Notes under the pieces: generated by a model
What the model saw: only the letters and a program-made list of their open reading frames with translations
The model's database searches: none
Told to the model about the DNA's origin: nothing
Assembly (NCBI RefSeq): GCF_013122565.1
Contig: NZ_CP053258.1
From: Escherichia coli
GTDB taxonomy: Bacteria > Pseudomonadota > Gammaproteobacteria > Enterobacterales > Enterobacteriaceae
Length of the DNA stretch: 64,000 nucleotides
Strand: one strand, 5' to 3'
Position numbers and translations under genes: made by a program
In this document: one piece after another, positions 2,508 through 34,513 of the stretch
Position numbering within the stretch: the stretch's first letter is position 1
Layout: every line of letters starts with the position of its first letter

Positions 2508-2820
2508 GCTACGCCTCTGTTAAAAATGTTAATCAATGTTAAGTGAGGTAACAATAGCAAACTTGTACGAAATATGTGTACAGAATGATAAATTAATTTT
2601 TTGCATTTAGTGCTAATGCATATAAAACAACAAGTTATGATAAAAAGTATTGCATCATTTAAATGACAACCTATACAAGAATTTTCGCCAACTCATCTTT
2701 AACTTTTTCCATTTTTTATCAATGTAAAGAAACAGTTATGTTTTGGTATTAAAAGAAAGACACCGGAAGAGATGTCTGTTACCGTCTTACTCTCGCCTCT
2801 CCCATTACACTGGACAGTTA
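2508..2820. promoter_or_regulatory. Divergent AT-rich promoter region for ycgZ operon and bluF; TGTAC-containing imperfect inverted repeat at about 2563-2583
   Basis: 312-bp AT-rich spacer between divergent starts; motif cTTGTACgaaatatgtGTACAg seen 56-76 nt upstream of the ycgZ start. Confidence 0.4.
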
Positions 2821-4032
2821 ATGCTTACCACCCTTATTTATCGTAGCCATATACGTGACGACGAACCTGTCAAAAAAATCGAAGAAATGGTTTCGATAGC
2901 AAATCGCAGGAACATGCAGTCTGACGTAACAGGGATCTTACTGTTTAATGGTTCTCATTTTTTCCAGCTTCTGGAAGGTCCGGAAGAACAGGTTAAAATG
3001 ATATATCGGGCTATATGCCAGGATCCACGGCACTATAATATTGTTGAGCTGCTGTGCGATTACGCGCCTGCTCGCCGTTTTGGCAAAGCGGGAATGGAAT
3101 TATTTGATTTGCGCCTGCACGAGCGAGATGATGTTTTACAGGCCGTATTCGACAAAGGCACATCAAAATTTCAGCTAACTTATGATGACAGAGCGCTACA
3201 ATTTTTTCGTACTTTTGTCCTTGCAACCGAACAATCAACCTATTTCGAGATCCCTGCCGAAGACTCCTGGCTTTTTATCGCTGACGGATCTGATAAAGCA
3301 CTTGATTCCTGTACCCTTTCACCAAATATAAACGACCACTTTGCTTTTCATCCTATTGTCGATCCCTTATCGCGGCGGATAATCGCTTTTGAAGCCATTG
3401 TGCAAAAAAATGAAGATAGCCCATCAGCTATAGAGGTTGGGCAGCGTAAAGACGGGGAAATCTACAAAGCGGATCTCAAAAGTAAGGCGCTTGCATTCGC
3501 GATGGCACACGCACTTGAGCTCGGTGATAAAATGATTTCAATCAATCTATTACCTATGACCCTGGTTAACGAACCTGACGCAGTCTCTTTTTTACTTGAT
3601 GAAATAAAGGCCAATGCTCTGGTGCCTGAACAAATCATCGTTGAATTTGCTGAAAGTGAAGTCATATCTCGGTTTGATGAGTTTGCAGAAGCGATTAAAT
3701 CGCTAAAGGCTGCTGGTATCAGTGTAGCAATTGATCATTTTGGCGCAGGTTTTGCCGGTTTGTTACTCCTGTCACGCTTCCAGCCTGACAGAATTAAAAT
3801 CAGTCAGGAATTGATTACCAATGTTCATAAAAGCGGGCCACGGCAGGCAATTATTCAGGCGATCATAAAATGCTGTACATCACTTGAAATTCAAGTCAGT
3901 GCTATGGGCGTGGCAACACCAGAAGAGTGGATGTGGCTTGAATCCGCAGGAATTGAGATGTTTCAGGGAGATCTGTTTGCTAAAGCTAAATTGAATGGTA
4001 TCCCTTCCATAGCGTGGCCAGAGAAAAAATAA
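2821..4032 (+). CDS. bluF: Blue-light sensing BLUF-EAL protein BluF (YcgF), anti-repressor of BluR
   Basis: ORF track 2743-4032; conserved start taken at internal ATG 2821 (MLTTLIYRSHIRDDEPVKKIEEMVSIANRR...), giving 403 aa. Confidence 0.9.
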   Translation: MLTTLIYRSHIRDDEPVKKIEEMVSIANRRNMQSDVTGILLFNGSHFFQLLEGPEEQVKMIYRAICQDPRHYNIVELLCDYAPARRFGKAGMELFDLRLHERDDVLQAVFDKGTSKFQLTYDDRALQFFRTFVLATEQSTYFEIPAEDSWLFIADGSDKALDSCTLSPNINDHFAFHPIVDPLSRRIIAFEAIVQKNEDSPSAIEVGQRKDGEIYKADLKSKALAFAMAHALELGDKMISINLLPMTLVNEPDAVSFLLDEIKANALVPEQIIVEFAESEVISRFDEFAEAIKSLKAAGISVAIDHFGAGFAGLLLLSRFQPDRIKISQELITNVHKSGPRQAIIQAIIKCCTSLEIQVSAMGVATPEEWMWLESAGIEMFQGDLFAKAKLNGIPSIAWPEKK

Positions 4033-4236: not shown

Positions 4237-4968
4237 GTGGCTTATTACAGCATTGGTGATGTTGCTGAACGTTGCGGGATTAATCCTGTCACTCTCCGGG
4301 CCTGGCAACGCCGCTACGGTTTGTTAAAACCACAGCGCAGTGAAGGCGGACACCGACTCTTTGATGAAGAAGACATACAACGCATCGAAGAGATCAAGCG
4401 TTGGATAAGTAATGGCGTCCCTGTAGGCAAAGTTAAAGCATTACTGGAAACCACCAGCCAGGATACGGAAGATGACTGGAGCCGCCTGCAAGAAGAGATG
4501 ATGTCAATTCTTCGTATGGCTAATCCTGCCAAACTACGCGCGAGAATTATTTCACTGGGTCGAGAGTACCCAGTAGATCAATTGATTAATCATGTTTACC
4601 TTCCTGTTCGCCAGCGTCTCGTGCTTGATCACAACACCTCCCGCATTATGAGCAGTATGTTTGACGGCGCATTAATTGAATACGCAGCAGCCTCGCTTTT
4701 CGAAATGCGCCGTAAGCCCGGTAAAGAAGCCATTCTGATGGCGTGGAATGTTGAAGAGAGAGCCCGATTGTGGCTGGAAGCATGGCGTTTATCATTATCA
4801 GGATGGCACATTTCTGTTCTTGCTGATCCCATTGAATCGCCGCGCCCGGAACTGTTCCCAACGCAAACGTTGATTGTCTGGACAGGCATGGCACCAACGA
4901 GAAGGCAAAACGAACTTTTACAACACTGGGTTGAGCAAGGTTATAAAGTCATCTTTCATGCCCCCTAA
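4237..4968 (+). CDS. bluR: MerR-family transcriptional repressor BluR (YcgE)
   Basis: 243-aa [59 protein letters not shown]... with MerR-type N-terminal HTH; GTG start preceded by AAGGAGG. Confidence 0.9.
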
Positions 4969-5188
4969 TTTCACCTTTATCCCCGCCCCTTAGACAGAAT
5001 GTTATAATCTGAACCCACAACAGCGTTTGCACCGGAGCTGTTCCATTGCAAAATGCTCACCGCACAATTCAGGCAATCCCCCTTTCACACTTTGTATATA
5101 TCACAGCCAAAGGACAGACCAGATTGAAGTGGTAAAACCGATCGTGCACACTATGCAGTCTCACAACTAACAAGAGGTTATTATCCTG

Positions 5189-5593
5189 ATGGATCAGGTC
5201 GTTGTTTTTCAAAAGATGTTTGAGCAAGTGAGAAAAGACCAAAACTTTTCCTGGTTTTATTCAGAATTAAAACATCACCGTATTGCACATTACATTTATT
5301 ATCTGGCTACGGATAACATCAGAATTATTACTCACGATGACACGGTTTTGTTATTAAGAGGAACCAGGAACCTGTTAAAAGTTAGTACGACCAAGAATCC
5401 TGCCAAAATAAAAGAGGCCGCATTGCTTCATATTTGCGGAAAATCTACATTTCGGGAATACTGTTCAACACTGGCAGGCGCGGGCGTTTTCCGGTGGGTT
5501 ACTGATGTTAATCATAACAAACGCAGTTACTACGCCATTGATAATACGCTTTTATATATTGAAGATGTAGAAAATAATAAACCATTAATCTAG
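5189..5593 (+). CDS. ycgX: Uncharacterized protein YcgX (DUF1398 family)
   Basis: 134-aa ORF MDQVVVFQKMFEQVRKDQNFSWFYSELKHHRIAHYIYYLATDNIRIITHDD... Confidence 0.85.
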   Translation: MDQVVVFQKMFEQVRKDQNFSWFYSELKHHRIAHYIYYLATDNIRIITHDDTVLLLRGTRNLLKVSTTKNPAKIKEAALLHICGKSTFREYCSTLAGAGVFRWVTDVNHNKRSYYAIDNTLLYIEDVENNKPLI

Positions 5594-5804
5594 CTAAAGT
5601 TGGAAGCTTAAGAAATGCTTCATAATTCAGTAAGGCATTAGCATAATGGAACTAAAAGTGCAGAGACTATTCCTATAGATCTTATACTGCCTTTTTATTG
5701 CCATCCATAGATGTTCAGTAGACCAATACTATAAAATTGATATTGAAATGTGCTCCCTTGCTTATTGATACATTATTTTATACGGTTAGTTTTCCTCTAA
5801 AAAC

Positions 5805-5829
5805 AACGGGCGTGCTATACGCCTGTTTC
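5805..5829 (-). terminator. Hairpin aacgggcgtgctatacgcctgtttc, a 23/25-identical copy of the icd terminator hairpin, with no obvious upstream gene on its strand
   Basis: Compare 7097-7121; on the minus strand the hairpin is followed by a U-rich tract. Confidence 0.35.
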
Positions 5830-5972
5830 AAGGCTTAACTCATATGAATTTTTCTTTATTTTTCATCACGTTATAATTTTTAACCAGCAACGAATTATCC
5901 TTCACTATAAAGTTCAATAGTTGAGACCTTATCCTCATGTCATGCGTATATTCATCATAATGATCCTTAGAC

Positions 5973-5998
5973 AAAAAAAGCCAACCATGATGGTTGGC
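5973..5998 (-). terminator. Orphan intrinsic terminator-like hairpin (8-bp stem gccaacca/tggttggc) followed by a U7 run on the minus strand
   Basis: Plus strand reads aaaaaaa-gccaaccatgatggttggc; no annotated minus-strand gene upstream of it. Confidence 0.45.
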
Positions 5999-6220
5999 AA
6001 AGTGGCACAAAGTAGCATAAAGGCTATGCTTTAATTACAGGAGGTTCAGACATTTGAATGTATATCGTTTTATCTAAACAGAACTAAAACGAAGTGAATG
6101 ATTTCATTTTTTCACTAAATCTCATTTTGTTTAATCTCTGTTGAGATTCCTTGTTTTAAATTTTGCTTTATATAAACAATAGCTTTATTTTTTAAATTGA
6201 TTTTTAGGTAATATAGAAAA

Positions 6221-6475
6221 ATGCAAAATCAAGGAATGAATATCCAAAGCAAACTATACGCATATTTAAATAAATATGACACTCGTCTTACAGAAGAAAA
6301 AATTGCGATTGAGAAAGCCATTAGAGAGTTACATTTTAGCAGCGAGCATGTTGATAACAAGAAAATAATACTGAAGTTACTATCATTTTTATCATATACA
6401 GATGATGTTGTCGAAAAAGACATTATCAGAAATGCATTGGAAGTGGTTCTTCTTTTTACTTCCGATGATATTTAA
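6221..6475 (+). CDS. AriR/YmgB-family small protein, paralog of ariR
   Basis: 84-aa ORF; C-terminal half VDNKKIILKLLSFLSYTDDVVEKDIIRNALEVVLLFTSDDI aligns with Ari[42 protein letters not shown]; weak Shine-Dalgarno. Confidence 0.55.
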   Translation: MQNQGMNIQSKLYAYLNKYDTRLTEEKIAIEKAIRELHFSSEHVDNKKIILKLLSFLSYTDDVVEKDIIRNALEVVLLFTSDDI

Positions 6476-6717
6476 TTGAATTCATTAATTTTATTATCAT
6501 AATTATTTTCCGGACACTACATTTTTTACTTATGTTTAATAATAACCACTGCGAATGAGGGACGCACAGGTATATTTTTCTCACACCTGTGATGTAAAAA
6601 CACGATAAAATCCAAATAAAGAATAAAATTTGCGACCCCACCAGATGGATTGCATCACACATTATTATTCAAAATATTTATCAACATCATTAATAGCCGA
6701 AGGATAAGACATAACAA

Positions 6718-7041
6718 ATGAAGTGGATAGTAATTGACACGGTAATTCAACCTACATGCGGTATATCTTTTTCAGCCATATGGGGTGATATGAAAATGAT
6801 CGTCTGGTATCAATCTACTATATTTCTCCCTCCTGGCAGTATATTTAAACCGGTTAAATCTGGTATTATCTTTAAGGATAAAGAATACCCTATTACTATT
6901 TATAACATCGCACCATTCAACAAGGATTTATGGAGTTTACTCAAAAGCAGTCAAGAGTGTCCTCCAGGAGAAAGCAAAATAACAAATAAATGTTTTCATA
7001 ATAGTTGCATTATAAAAATATGCCCATATGGGCTCAAGTAA
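6718..7041 (+). CDS. iraM: Anti-adaptor protein IraM (stabilizes RpoS by inhibiting RssB)
   Basis: 107-aa [36 protein letters not shown]...ICPYGLK; size and sequence match IraM (YcgW). Confidence 0.85.
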
Positions 7042-7092
7042 AGGGTTTCATATAAATATGCTCGATATGCTATTAATAATACCTACATAAAT

Positions 7093-7121
7093 AAAAAAAC
7101 GGGCGTGTTATACGCCCGTTT
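7093..7121 (-). terminator. icd rho-independent terminator (9-bp perfect stem aaacgggcg/cgcccgttt followed by U-run on the minus strand)
   Basis: Located 23 nt downstream of the icd stop codon at 7144-7146. Confidence 0.7.
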
Positions 7122-7143
7122 CAATATTTAAAACATGGAGAGA

Positions 7144-8394
7144 TTACATGTTTTCGATGATCGCGTCACCAAACTCTGAACATTTGAGCAGCTTAGCGCC
7201 TTCCATCAGACGTTCGAAGTCATAAGTTACGGTCTTCGCGTTGATTGCGCCTTCCATACCTTTAACAATCAGGTCTGCGGCTTCAGTCCAGCCCATATGG
7301 CGTAACATCATCTCTGCGGAGAGAATAATAGAGCCTGGGTTAACTTTGTCCTGACCGGCATATTTCGGCGCAGTACCGTGGGTGGCTTCAAACAGGGCGC
7401 ATTCGTCACCGATGTTTGCGCCAGGGGCGATACCAATACCACCAACCTGCGCTGCCAGGGCGTCAGAAATGTAGTCACCGTTCAGGTTCATACAGGCGAT
7501 AACGTCGTATTCAGCCGGACGTAGCAGGATCTGTTGCAGGAACGCATCAGCGATCACGTCTTTAATGACGATCTCTTTGCCGGTGTTCGGGTTTTTAACT
7601 TTCAGCCACGGGCCGCCGTCGATCAGTTCACCGCCAAACTCTTCACGCGCCAGCTGGTAGCCCCAGTCTTTAAACGCGCCTTCGGTGAACTTCATGATGT
7701 TACCTTTGTGCACCAGGGTCACAGAGTCACGATCGTTAGCAATTGCGTATTCGATCGCTGCACGAACCAGACGTTTGGTGCCTTCTTCCGAACACGGCTT
7801 AATACCGATACCGCAATGTTCCGGGAAACGAATTTTCTTCACGCCCATCTCTTCACGCAGGAATTTAATCACTTTCTCGGCGTCGGCAGAGTCAGCTTTC
7901 CATTCGATACCCGCATAAATGTCTTCCGAGTTTTCACGGAAGATAACCATATCGGTCAGTTCAGGGTGTTTAACCGGGCTTGGAGTGCCCTGATAGTAAC
8001 GTACCGGACGCAGGCAGATGTAGAGATCCAGTTCCTGACGCAGGGCAACGTTCAGAGAGCGAATACCGCCACCTACTGGAGTGGTCAGCGGGCCTTTAAT
8101 GGCAACGCGATATTCACGAATCAGATCAAGGGTTTCAGCAGGCAGCCAGACATCCTGACCATAAACCTGTGTGGATTTTTCACCGGTGTAAATTTCCATC
8201 CAGGAGATTTTACGCTCGCCTTTATAGGCTTTCTCGACTGCAGCGTCGACCACTTTCAGCATGGCTGGGGTTACATCTACACCGATTCCATCACCTTCAA
8301 TGTAAGGGATAATCGGATTTTCAGGAACGTTGAGTTTGCCGTTTTGCAGGGTGATCTTCTTGCCTTGTGCCGGAACAACTACTTTACTTTCCAT
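7144..8394 (-). CDS. icd: Isocitrate dehydrogenase (NADP), intact
   Basis: 416-aa [49 protein letters not shown]...[13 protein letters not shown]; full length with the native C-terminus. Confidence 0.97.
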
Positions 8395-14508: not shown

Positions 14509-14525
14509 AGTTTATTTAATGTTTA
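14509..14525 (+). promoter_or_regulatory. PhoP box (direct repeat aGTTTA-N5-TGTTTA) in the phoPQ promoter
   Basis: agtttatttaatgttta about 60 nt upstream of the phoP ATG; matches the (T/G)GTTTA-N5-(T/G)GTTTA consensus. Confidence 0.7.
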
Positions 14526-33328: not shown

Positions 33329-33471
33329 TGGTAAATCTGGGGCGTTTCTGCGCCCCCATCTGCAACATTTACAAATTCTTTGCACTTCCCTTCACTATCC
33401 GACACTGTCACCATCCATAATTCAGGCTTATCTGTTTATTACAATAACCTTATATTTATTATGGATTTTTG

Positions 33472-34434
33472 GTGATGATCAAAACGCGTTTTTCTCGCTG
33501 GCTAACGTTTTTTACGTTCGCCGCTGCCGTGGCGCTGGCGCTACCGGCAAAAGCCAACACCTGGCCGCTGCCGCCAGCGGGCAGTCGTCTGGTTGGCGAA
33601 AACAAATTTCATGTGGTGGAAAATGACGGTGGTTCTCTGGAAGCCATCGCCAAAAAATATAACGTCGGCTTTCTCGCTCTGTTACAGGCTAACCCCGGCG
33701 TTGATCCTTACGTACCGCGCGCGGGTAGCGTGTTAACGATCCCGTTGCAAACCCTACTTCCAGATGCGCCGCGCGAAGGCATTGTGATCAACATTGCGGA
33801 GCTGCGTCTCTATTATTATCCGCCGGGAAAAAATTCGGTAACCGTGTATCCAATAGGTATTGGTCAGTTAGGTGGTGACACGCTGACACCGACAATGGTG
33901 ACCACCGTTTCTGACAAGCGTGCAAACCCAACCTGGACGCCAACGGCAAACATCCGAGCCCGTTATAAAGCACAGGGAATTGATTTGCCTGCGGTGGTTC
34001 CGGCTGGACCGGATAACCCAATGGGTCATCATGCGATTCGTCTGGCGGCCTATGGCGGCGTTTATTTGCTTCACGGTACGAACGCCGATTTCGGCATTGG
34101 CATGCGGGTAAGTTCTGGCTGTATTCGTCTGCGGGATGACGATATCAAAACACTCTTTAGCCAGGTCACTCCAGGTACCAAAGTAAATATCATCAACACC
34201 CCGATTAAAGTCTCTGCCGAACCAAACGGTGCGCGTCTGGTTGAAGTACATCAGCCGCTGTCAGAGAAGATTGATGACGATCCGCAGCTGCTGCCAATTA
34301 CGCTGAATAGCGCAATGCAATCGTTTAAAGATGCAGCACAAACTGACGCTGAAGTGATGCAACATGTGATGGATGTCCGTTCCGGGATGCCGGTGGATGT
34401 CCGCCGTCATCAAGTGAGCCCACAAACTCTGTAA
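33472..34434 (+). CDS. ldtC: L,D-transpeptidase LdtC (YcfS), LysM + YkuD domains
   Basis: ORF track 33469-34434; three clustered starts (TTG/GTG/ATG); signal peptide; catalytic SSGCIRL motif. Confidence 0.9.
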   Translation: MMIKTRFSRWLTFFTFAAAVALALPAKANTWPLPPAGSRLVGENKFHVVENDGGSLEAIAKKYNVGFLALLQANPGVDPYVPRAGSVLTIPLQTLLPDAPREGIVINIAELRLYYYPPGKNSVTVYPIGIGQLGGDTLTPTMVTTVSDKRANPTWTPTANIRARYKAQGIDLPAVVPAGPDNPMGHHAIRLAAYGGVYLLHGTNADFGIGMRVSSGCIRLRDDDIKTLFSQVTPGTKVNIINTPIKVSAEPNGARLVEVHQPLSEKIDDDPQLLPITLNSAMQSFKDAAQTDAEVMQHVMDVRSGMPVDVRRHQVSPQTL

Positions 34435-34513
34435 ATCCTGGATAAAAAAAATCCCCGCGACACGGCATGTCGCGGGGAAAATCAGAGTAGCAGGCATTAA
34501 TGAGGGTTAATGC

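Follow-up and report, generated by a model that had tools for sequence, protein, structure and literature searches.

Organization of the ycgX-iraM region

The window analysed here is a 64,000-nucleotide stretch of Escherichia coli DNA (contig NZ_CP053258.1, assembly GCF_013122565.1). Coordinates of the features discussed below are collected in Table 1, and all positions refer to the window unless K-12 coordinates are given. The gene order is that of the icd-iraM-ycgX-bluR region of E. coli K-12, reversed and without prophage e14. An islet of 30% GC holds ymgK, an extra gene of the ariR/ymgB family and iraM, and has a copy of the icd terminator at each end. These copies form a direct repeat with 82% identity, 1,293 bp apart. 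In the B2 strains (L004 and L005), the left terminator copy is followed by a pseudogene fragment of the icd 3' end and by the sitABCD island. Because the icd terminator is duplicated and the B2 strains carry an icd fragment, the islet looks like the remnant of an element that integrated at the 3' end of icd. The iraM gene appears to sit within this remnant, in a layer older than e14.

The extra gene of the islet, referred to here as the ariR-like gene, lies directly upstream of iraM and is annotated as a YmgB/AriR-family gene in the closest genomes. Versions of it are kept in only 29 of 5,426 complete E. coli genomes, in an 84-residue and an 86-residue form that are approximately 75% identical as proteins. 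K-12-type genomes have lost some 430 bp here (approximately 6254-6687 in window coordinates), so that the gene is gone and only its first 34 or so nucleotides are left, fused upstream of iraM.

The spacer between ycgX and iraM has been rearranged repeatedly. Independent IS insertions, of IS5 in one case and of IS3 with a group II intron in the other, have replaced the part of the spacer with the hairpin homolog in strains W444 and 100416 (L006 and L017), and the spacer is thus a rearrangement hotspot. In the window, codon 11 of a ymgL homolog (5646-5678) has changed from TGG to TAG, which truncates it. The ymgL of LHM10-1 is cut short by another early stop, and the L008-type allele lacks the whole segment containing ymgL and the terminator copy; YmgL is therefore not conserved outside K-12-type alleles. 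Farther to the left, a long near-perfect inverted repeat (GATATCAGGTGTCAAGAATGGAGAG ... CTCTCCATTCTTGACACCTGATAT; 1151-1205) with arms of about 24 bp and a short loop lies to the left of the ycgZ-ymgA-ariR-ymgC cluster.

Table 1. Positions of genes and sequence features in the window.
Feature	Position	Strand	Remarks
bluF	2743-4032
bluR	4237-4968
ycgX	5189-5593		Followed by a 627-bp spacer
Left copy of icd terminator	5800-5843	minus	Left islet boundary; second minus-strand terminator-like site
Promoter-like ATGTCA-16-AATGAT	5937-5964	+	Just left of the hairpin; predicted transcription start ~5971
U7 tract	5973-5979	minus	Adjoins the stem; reads AAAAAAA on the + strand
Putative terminator hairpin	5980-5998	minus	8-bp perfect stem GCCAACCA/TGGTTGGC, 3-nt loop TGA
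ymgK homolog	5990-6034	+	14 codons, MVGKVAQSSIKAML; aligns to K-12 ymgK; stop 6032-6034
Invariant block AAAGTGGCACAAA	5999-6011		Predicted single-stranded RNA just 5' of the putative terminator on the minus strand
Promoter-like GTGGCA-17-TATGCT	6002-6030	+	-35-like 6002-6007, -10-like 6025-6030
Second dyad AGCATA-AAGGC-TATGCT	6014-6030		Possible minus-strand RNA stem-loop, or + strand -10-like TATGCT
Candidate leftward promoter	6057-6091	minus	Box CGTTTT-agttc-TGTTTA (6091-6075), 2 mismatches; 12-nt spacer; TACATT (6062-6057)
PhoP box TGTTTA-atctc-TGTTGA	6128-6144	+	1 mismatch; 12-nt spacer, then invariant TAAATT (6157-6162)
ariR-like gene (YmgB/AriR family, PF10798)	6221-6475	+	84 aa; intact in the window, deleted in K-12-type alleles
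Candidate antisense start GTGTCA-18-TATAGT	6282-6253	minus	Within the ariR-like gene
Candidate antisense start TCGACA-18-AAAAAT	6414-6385	minus	Within the ariR-like gene
iraM	6718-7041
icd terminator proper	7093-7136	minus	Right islet boundary; found by terminator scan and as direct repeat
icd	7144-8394	minus

A hairpin followed by a U-run on the minus strand

The initial annotation had described a clean hairpin with seven U residues on the minus strand at 5973-5998, and the sequence, a consensus scan and folding all bear this out. The consensus scan returned a minus-strand terminator-like site with 8 pairs (5 of them G-C), a 3-nt loop and the tail TTTTTTTGTC. The stem is G+C-rich and, like the loop, has the dimensions of Rho-independent terminators (stem of about 5-14 bp, loop of 3-8 nt), and the U7 tract lies directly 3' of the stem, at 5979-5973. 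The fold energy on the minus strand is -11.4 kcal/mol for the hairpin alone and -12.6 kcal/mol in context. The + strand folds equally well (-12.9 kcal/mol); its sequence 3' of the hairpin is AAAGUGG, so that the U-tract is present on the minus side only.

We compared this pattern with chance expectation under strict criteria, requiring a mismatch-free stem of 7 bp or longer with at least 4 G-C pairs, a loop of 3-8 nt and at least 6 T in the next 8 nt. Across both strands of the 64-kb window these criteria gave 10 matches at 6 loci, against a mean of 0.28 in 100 first-order Markov simulations. Four of the five other loci lie exactly at the 3' ends of long ORFs and in the right orientation. The hairpin with its U-run is a non-chance pattern. 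A further strict terminator-like motif on the minus strand, CCGCGAC-ATGCCGT-GTCGCGG followed by GGATTTTT at 34455-34475, adjoins the end of no minus-strand ORF of at least 110 residues and lies just past a + strand ORF (33469-34434).

The hairpin had also been described as an orphan, with no annotated minus-strand gene upstream of it and an AT-rich region on its right. Both descriptions hold: among the listed minus-strand ORFs of at least 25 residues, none terminates directly upstream of the hairpin, the RefSeq records of the closest genomes show no feature under it, and positions 6000-6220 have a GC content of 25.8%, compared with 49.9% for the whole window. As the palindrome is present once in the window and at one place per genome, it is not a repeat element of the REP/BIME kind, present in many copies per genome.

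Conservation of the hairpin among E. coli alleles

We surveyed the alleles of the spacer in 5,426 complete E. coli genomes. Approximately 3,900 carry a K-12-type spacer, which is only about 80-81% identical to the window. A W-type spacer together with the ariR-like gene is found in 10 genomes and is 95-96% identical to the window, and 19 genomes have the L008/L021 spacer type with the 86-residue version of the ariR-like gene; L021 is the commoner sub-allele, with 15 complete genomes. Strains LHM10-1 and PT62 are W-type, and EC42405 and 2013C-4282 belong to the L008/L021 type. L018 represents a fourth type, from a lineage whose bluR is 95% identical. In the remaining genomes the segment is absent. 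An allele with the hairpin is present in about 0.5% of complete E. coli genomes. Between classes the islet shares only 71-82% identity, whereas bluR is 98-99% identical among the classes other than L018, and the islet classes are therefore old, diverged haplotypes.

The hairpin is found in three lineages (W-type, L008/L021-type and L018-type), all of which carry an intact ariR-like gene. Their spacers are mutually only 71-79% identical, and the stem and an uninterrupted tract of six or seven A residues are invariant among them (Table 2). At the corresponding position, the consensus scan detects a terminator in L008 and in L018 but not in K-12. Across the four ariR-like-bearing classes, 60% of spacer columns are invariant, and the two longest invariant runs, 5974-5989 (16 nt) and 5992-6011 (20 nt), comprise the A-tract, both arms of the stem and the next 13 nt, broken only at the loop. 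Variation within the hairpin is confined to the loop in these alleles (an A to G change and a 1-nt deletion). None of 14 predicted pairs shows compensatory double changes; since the stems are essentially invariant, a covariation test is uninformative. In the K-12 and 042 alleles, from which the ariR-like gene is deleted, the stem is lost (0 to -2.6 kcal/mol) and the tract is shorter. This joint loss of hairpin and gene counts as a single evolutionary event.

Table 2. The hairpin and adjoining tract in the allele types.
Allele	Tract	Hairpin	Fold energy
W-type	A7	GCCAACCA-TGA-TGGTTGGC	-12.6 kcal/mol
L008 and L018	A6	Stem as in W-type, loop TGG	-12.6 kcal/mol
L021	A6	1-nt loop deletion giving a 7-bp stem and 4-nt loop	-11.6 kcal/mol
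K-12	A5	GGCAACCA-TAA-TGTTTAGC	0 alone, -2.6 kcal/mol in context
042-type	A4	Right arm degenerate; no local hairpin	-6.7 kcal/mol in context, pairing other bases

Searches beyond the complete E. coli genomes returned little. A search for an ancestral context gave no match in a phage collection, and nine matches in a plasmid collection, several of them to chromosome-sized records, gave no alternative context. The metagenome scan returned one W-type contig. The sole return of a 25-mer scan of genome contigs from other species was an E. coli-like contig of 558 bp from an Oceanospirillum assembly. This low-coverage contig (NZ_MTSD02000045.1, O. linum) carries an exact K-12-type ymgK region and is probably E. 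coli contamination.

Overlap with ymgK

The ATG of the ymgK homolog, at position 5990, straddles the hairpin's loop and 3' arm. The K-12 gene (MFSKLAQSSIKAMF, MG1655 1212260-1212304) occupies the same homologous position and likewise has 14 codons, at 4 of which the encoded residue differs from that in the window. The start codon of the window's ymgK is enclosed in a stable hairpin, whereas that of K-12 is not. The YmgK protein has been detected in K-12 by epitope tagging (VanOrsdel et al. 2018, PMC6001520).

An ORF and peptide conserved among homologous loci, as would be expected of a small-protein gene, are not seen for ymgK. The L021-type deletion keeps the hairpin and shifts the reading frame to give MGLAKWHKPA*, and the stop codon is lost in the L008-type allele. 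By manual count, codon changes across the alleles comprise about 8 non-synonymous and about 3 synonymous differences. This ratio and the broken frames argue that the nucleotide sequence, not the peptide, is conserved. Just past the ymgK stop, at 6041-6046, lies a perfect AGGAGG without a well-spaced start codon; an ATG at 6059 is 12 nt away and opens a 9-codon ORF. The AGGAGG is not conserved, reading CAGAAGG in LHM10-1 and CAGGATG in K-12.

Promoter-like sites and PhoP boxes

The + strand PhoP box at 6128-6144 conforms to the arrangement (T/G)GTTTA-N5-(T/G)GTTTA approximately 12 bp upstream of a -10 hexamer, and this architecture of box and TAAATT is conserved in every allele including K-12. 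Its quality is equalled within the window only by a site at 14509-14525 which, from its sequence and the gene order, we take to be the promoter box of phoP itself. The segment 6128-6162 is likely the PhoP-dependent promoter of the ariR-like gene and iraM. Since the PhoP box and TAAATT lie within it, the 220-bp AT-rich region would mainly be the promoter region of these two genes. PhoP dependence of iraM has reportedly been described. The architecture of the box also agrees with the Mg2+-starvation response reported for iraM (PMC10957080).

A second box, on the minus strand at 6091-6075, is the only site in 6000-6220 that might drive leftward transcription toward the hairpin. A start at about 6050 is predicted from it, which would give an RNA of about 77 nt antisense to ymgK. 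The hexamers of this box are conserved, its internal spacer varies across alleles, and the -10 element reads TACATT or TATATT; the arrangement of box, 12 nt and -10 is conserved in W, L008 and K-12, with spacing shifted by 2 nt in L018. Boxes of this two-mismatch class are only modestly enriched (24 found against 15 expected). The boxes at 6128-6144 and 6075-6091 lie on opposite strands, each followed after exactly 12 nt by a -10-like hexamer, and could therefore form a divergent pair of PhoP promoters. A third direct repeat resembling a PhoP box occurs in the islet at 6522-6538 on the + strand.

A promoter scan of the aligned alleles found no strong conserved minus-strand sigma-70 promoter in 6000-6220, where the initial annotation had suggested promoter prediction near 6150-6220. 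Two candidate antisense starts lie farther right, inside the ariR-like gene, and both are removed by the K-12 deletion. Decay of the terminator in K-12 would be explained by this removal of the antisense starts, in a single event of joint loss.

Two promoter-like elements on the + strand flank or adjoin the hairpin. The site at 5937-5964 has a (T/A)ATGAT -10 hexamer at the same alignment column in 7 of 9 sequences (the window, L001, L008, L018, L021, L023 and K-12). The element at 6002-6030 reads TTGGCA...TATGTT in K-12 and has TATAAT as its -10 in L018. Its right part coincides with the second dyad, which we considered as an RNA hairpin. The dyad is weakened in L018 by the same change that creates a perfect + strand TATAAT, and it is kept in K-12, which lacks the terminator; a + strand promoter is the likelier explanation for it. 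Because it is intact in K-12 without the hairpin, we prefer to read the whole element at 6002-6030 as a + strand promoter and do not count it toward a small RNA.

Neither a known RNA nor a peptide could be assigned to the minus strand. Rfam cmscan over 4900-7300, with E values up to 10, gave nothing between 5317 and 6895, so that no match to a curated RNA family supports a minus-strand transcript. The proposal that the AT-rich region encodes a very small protein found no support: three-frame translation of six alleles gave no minus-strand ORF of at least 10 residues common to all allele classes, and none with a Shine-Dalgarno sequence. Of the small transcript proposed alongside it, the terminator signal stands, and the transcript itself is something we infer from that signal.

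Published transcript data from K-12

Term-seq had been named in the initial annotation as a check on the hairpin. In K-12 Term-seq data (Adams et al. 2021, PMC7815308), there is no 3' end at 1212000-1212799. This is weak counter-evidence, because the K-12 hairpin is degenerate and poor expression would be expected in the media used. SMRT-Cappable-seq data from K-12 have no entry for the ymgK-iraM locus, and values in a p19 dsRNA study are at the gene level only.

The same Term-seq study reports a BCM-sensitive "orphan" Rho-termination region at K-12 position 1212310 on the + strand (PMC7815308). The Rho score is 2.57 (p = 9.4e-5), a borderline call made with 800-nt windows, and upstream and downstream reads number 45 and 42 without BCM and 122 and 293 with BCM (PMC7815308). 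Position 1212310 lies inside the K-12 homolog of the hairpin (1212296-1212314) and, as the ymgK coordinates show, its strand corresponds to the minus strand of the window. The check thus gave no transcript end in K-12 and a weak Rho-dependent signal on the strand in question. These data show no more than that low-level leftward transcription crosses the hairpin homolog in K-12, where Rho curtails it; alleles in which the stem is kept may do the same by intrinsic termination. H-NS has also been flagged for the iraM-ycgX spacer (Shimada 2014, PMC3946193).

Alternative explanations for the hairpin

The hairpin might act in + strand RNA instead, either as a 5' stabilizing stem-loop of a transcript running from ymgK to the ariR-like gene and iraM, or in control of ymgK initiation. 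The promoter-like site at 5937-5964 holds its alignment column in most sequences, its -10 hexamer lies 14-15 nt from the stem in all ariR-like-bearing alleles, and the hairpin is as stable on this strand as on the other. Transcription of the + strand does occur in K-12, where YmgK is made, and an RNA hairpin on either strand would tolerate the loop indel. This explanation leaves the uninterrupted tract of A6-7 beside the stem in three lineages without a role, however, and the frame and length of ymgK are not conserved. The promoter match is only 8-9 of 12 positions, and matches of this quality are as frequent in such DNA as chance would give. Work on the ompA 5' hairpin indicates that 2-4 unpaired 5' nucleotides still allow stabilization; the predicted start would leave 8-9. 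We regard action in the + strand RNA as unlikely. A different possibility is that the 19-bp perfect palindrome serves as DNA, as the operator of a dimeric regulator centered at about -48 from the GTGGCA-17-TATGCT promoter. The palindrome does adjoin this conserved promoter-like element, and K-12, which lacks the palindrome, has a better -35 (TTGGCA), as if to offset a lost activator site. An operator would keep a fixed spacing of its half-sites among functional alleles, but the central 1-bp deletion in the L021-type allele, present in 15 complete genomes, changes that spacing. The palindrome is not repeated elsewhere in the window, the A-tract would again go unexplained, and to our knowledge no regulator recognizes such a site. 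The BluR operator was considered and rejected, as the region upstream of ycgZ has a different dyad, TGTAC...GTACA. An operator is very improbable.

It is also conceivable that the hairpin has no present function, being a chance feature or the terminator of a gene since lost from the ancestral integrated element. Its position about 130 bp inside the left end of the islet would suit such a relic, as would the icd fragment and sit island at this site in B2 strains, the lack of an upstream minus-strand gene today, and the fact that the common K-12 allele does without it. Set against this, none of the 22 positions of the stem and tract varies among the three lineages, between which 21-29% of spacer sites differ. 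With 60% of columns invariant, the corresponding probability is 0.6^22, or approximately 1e-5, before correction for about 340 window positions. No homolog was found in another context in the phage and plasmid collections. A relic or chance feature is improbable on these grounds.

Taken together, these comparisons indicate that the hairpin is very probably a maintained RNA element. The L021 deletion is informative here because it keeps the fold while shifting the frame of ymgK and changing the half-site spacing, which favors an RNA hairpin over a conserved peptide or a protein-binding palindrome. Between the two strands, the minus strand is favored because the uninterrupted A6-7 tract adjoins the stem in three diverged lineages and is not otherwise explained.

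A putative terminator for leftward transcription

We propose, with a probability of about one half, that the hairpin and U-run are a functional Rho-independent terminator for leftward transcription. Chance does not account for the motif, no other part of the spacer is as well conserved across the three diverged lineages, and a loop indel that breaks ymgK is tolerated; all of this agrees with the terminator suggested in the initial annotation. The Rho region at 1212310 (+) in K-12 argues that polymerases do run leftward across this point and have to be stopped. RNA polymerase that started to the right of the hairpin would be released at approximately 5974-5976. The start would most likely lie at about 6050, in the region that carries the PhoP-box promoter of the ariR-like/iraM operon, for an RNA of the length predicted above; the antisense promoter-like sites in the ariR-like gene would instead yield RNAs of 270-400 nt. 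In either case the product would be a short non-coding transcript, antisense to ymgK over its full length. Its termination may shield the + strand site at 5937-5964 and the 3' end of ycgX from leftward transcription.

The terminator reading is distinct from the claim that the hairpin defines a discrete functional small RNA, which we also hold to be unlikely. A specific form of that claim is a PhoP-activated RNA of about 77 nt, running from about 6050 to 5974 on the minus strand, divergent from the ariR-like/iraM promoter and antisense to ymgK. Such a lineage-specific riboregulator, lost in K-12 together with the ariR-like gene, is quite unlikely. If it exists, it would place a riboregulator in the pathway from Mg2+ and acid to RpoS stabilization in rare E. 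coli lineages.

The element resembles the icd terminator at 7096-7122, which likewise combines a perfect, G+C-rich stem with a short loop and an immediate U-tract, folds at about -12 kcal/mol and is unidirectional. Unlike the icd terminator, it has no recognizable same-strand unit upstream, lies in a promoter region, and overlaps a + strand start codon. MgrR is a PhoP-activated, Hfq-dependent small RNA of E. coli. If the candidate promoter is real, the putative RNA would share with MgrR a PhoP-box promoter, a short length, a U-rich single-stranded stretch just before the terminator, and an end formed by a hairpin and long U-tract. The two have no sequence or Rfam similarity, however, and the putative RNA would be cis-antisense to ymgK, whereas MgrR acts in trans; it would also be confined to that roughly 0.5% of complete genomes.

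Rho and H-NS suppress antisense and pervasive transcription in AT-rich acquired DNA. The putative terminator would do likewise for an islet of 30% GC, where it would halt non-coding transcription running leftward, but as a hard-wired intrinsic stop rather than a Rho-dependent one. The element is ordinary in kind and limited to rare alleles (approximately 0.5% of sequenced E. coli), and its impact is modest. If the reading is correct, some alleles would rely on an intrinsic terminator to stop antisense transcription in this AT-rich acquired islet, and K-12 on Rho. IraM is an anti-adaptor that stabilizes RpoS under Mg2+ starvation and acid. An active terminator would mark an unannotated leftward transcript in the control region of iraM, which is also that of an uncharacterized paralog of the AriR family.
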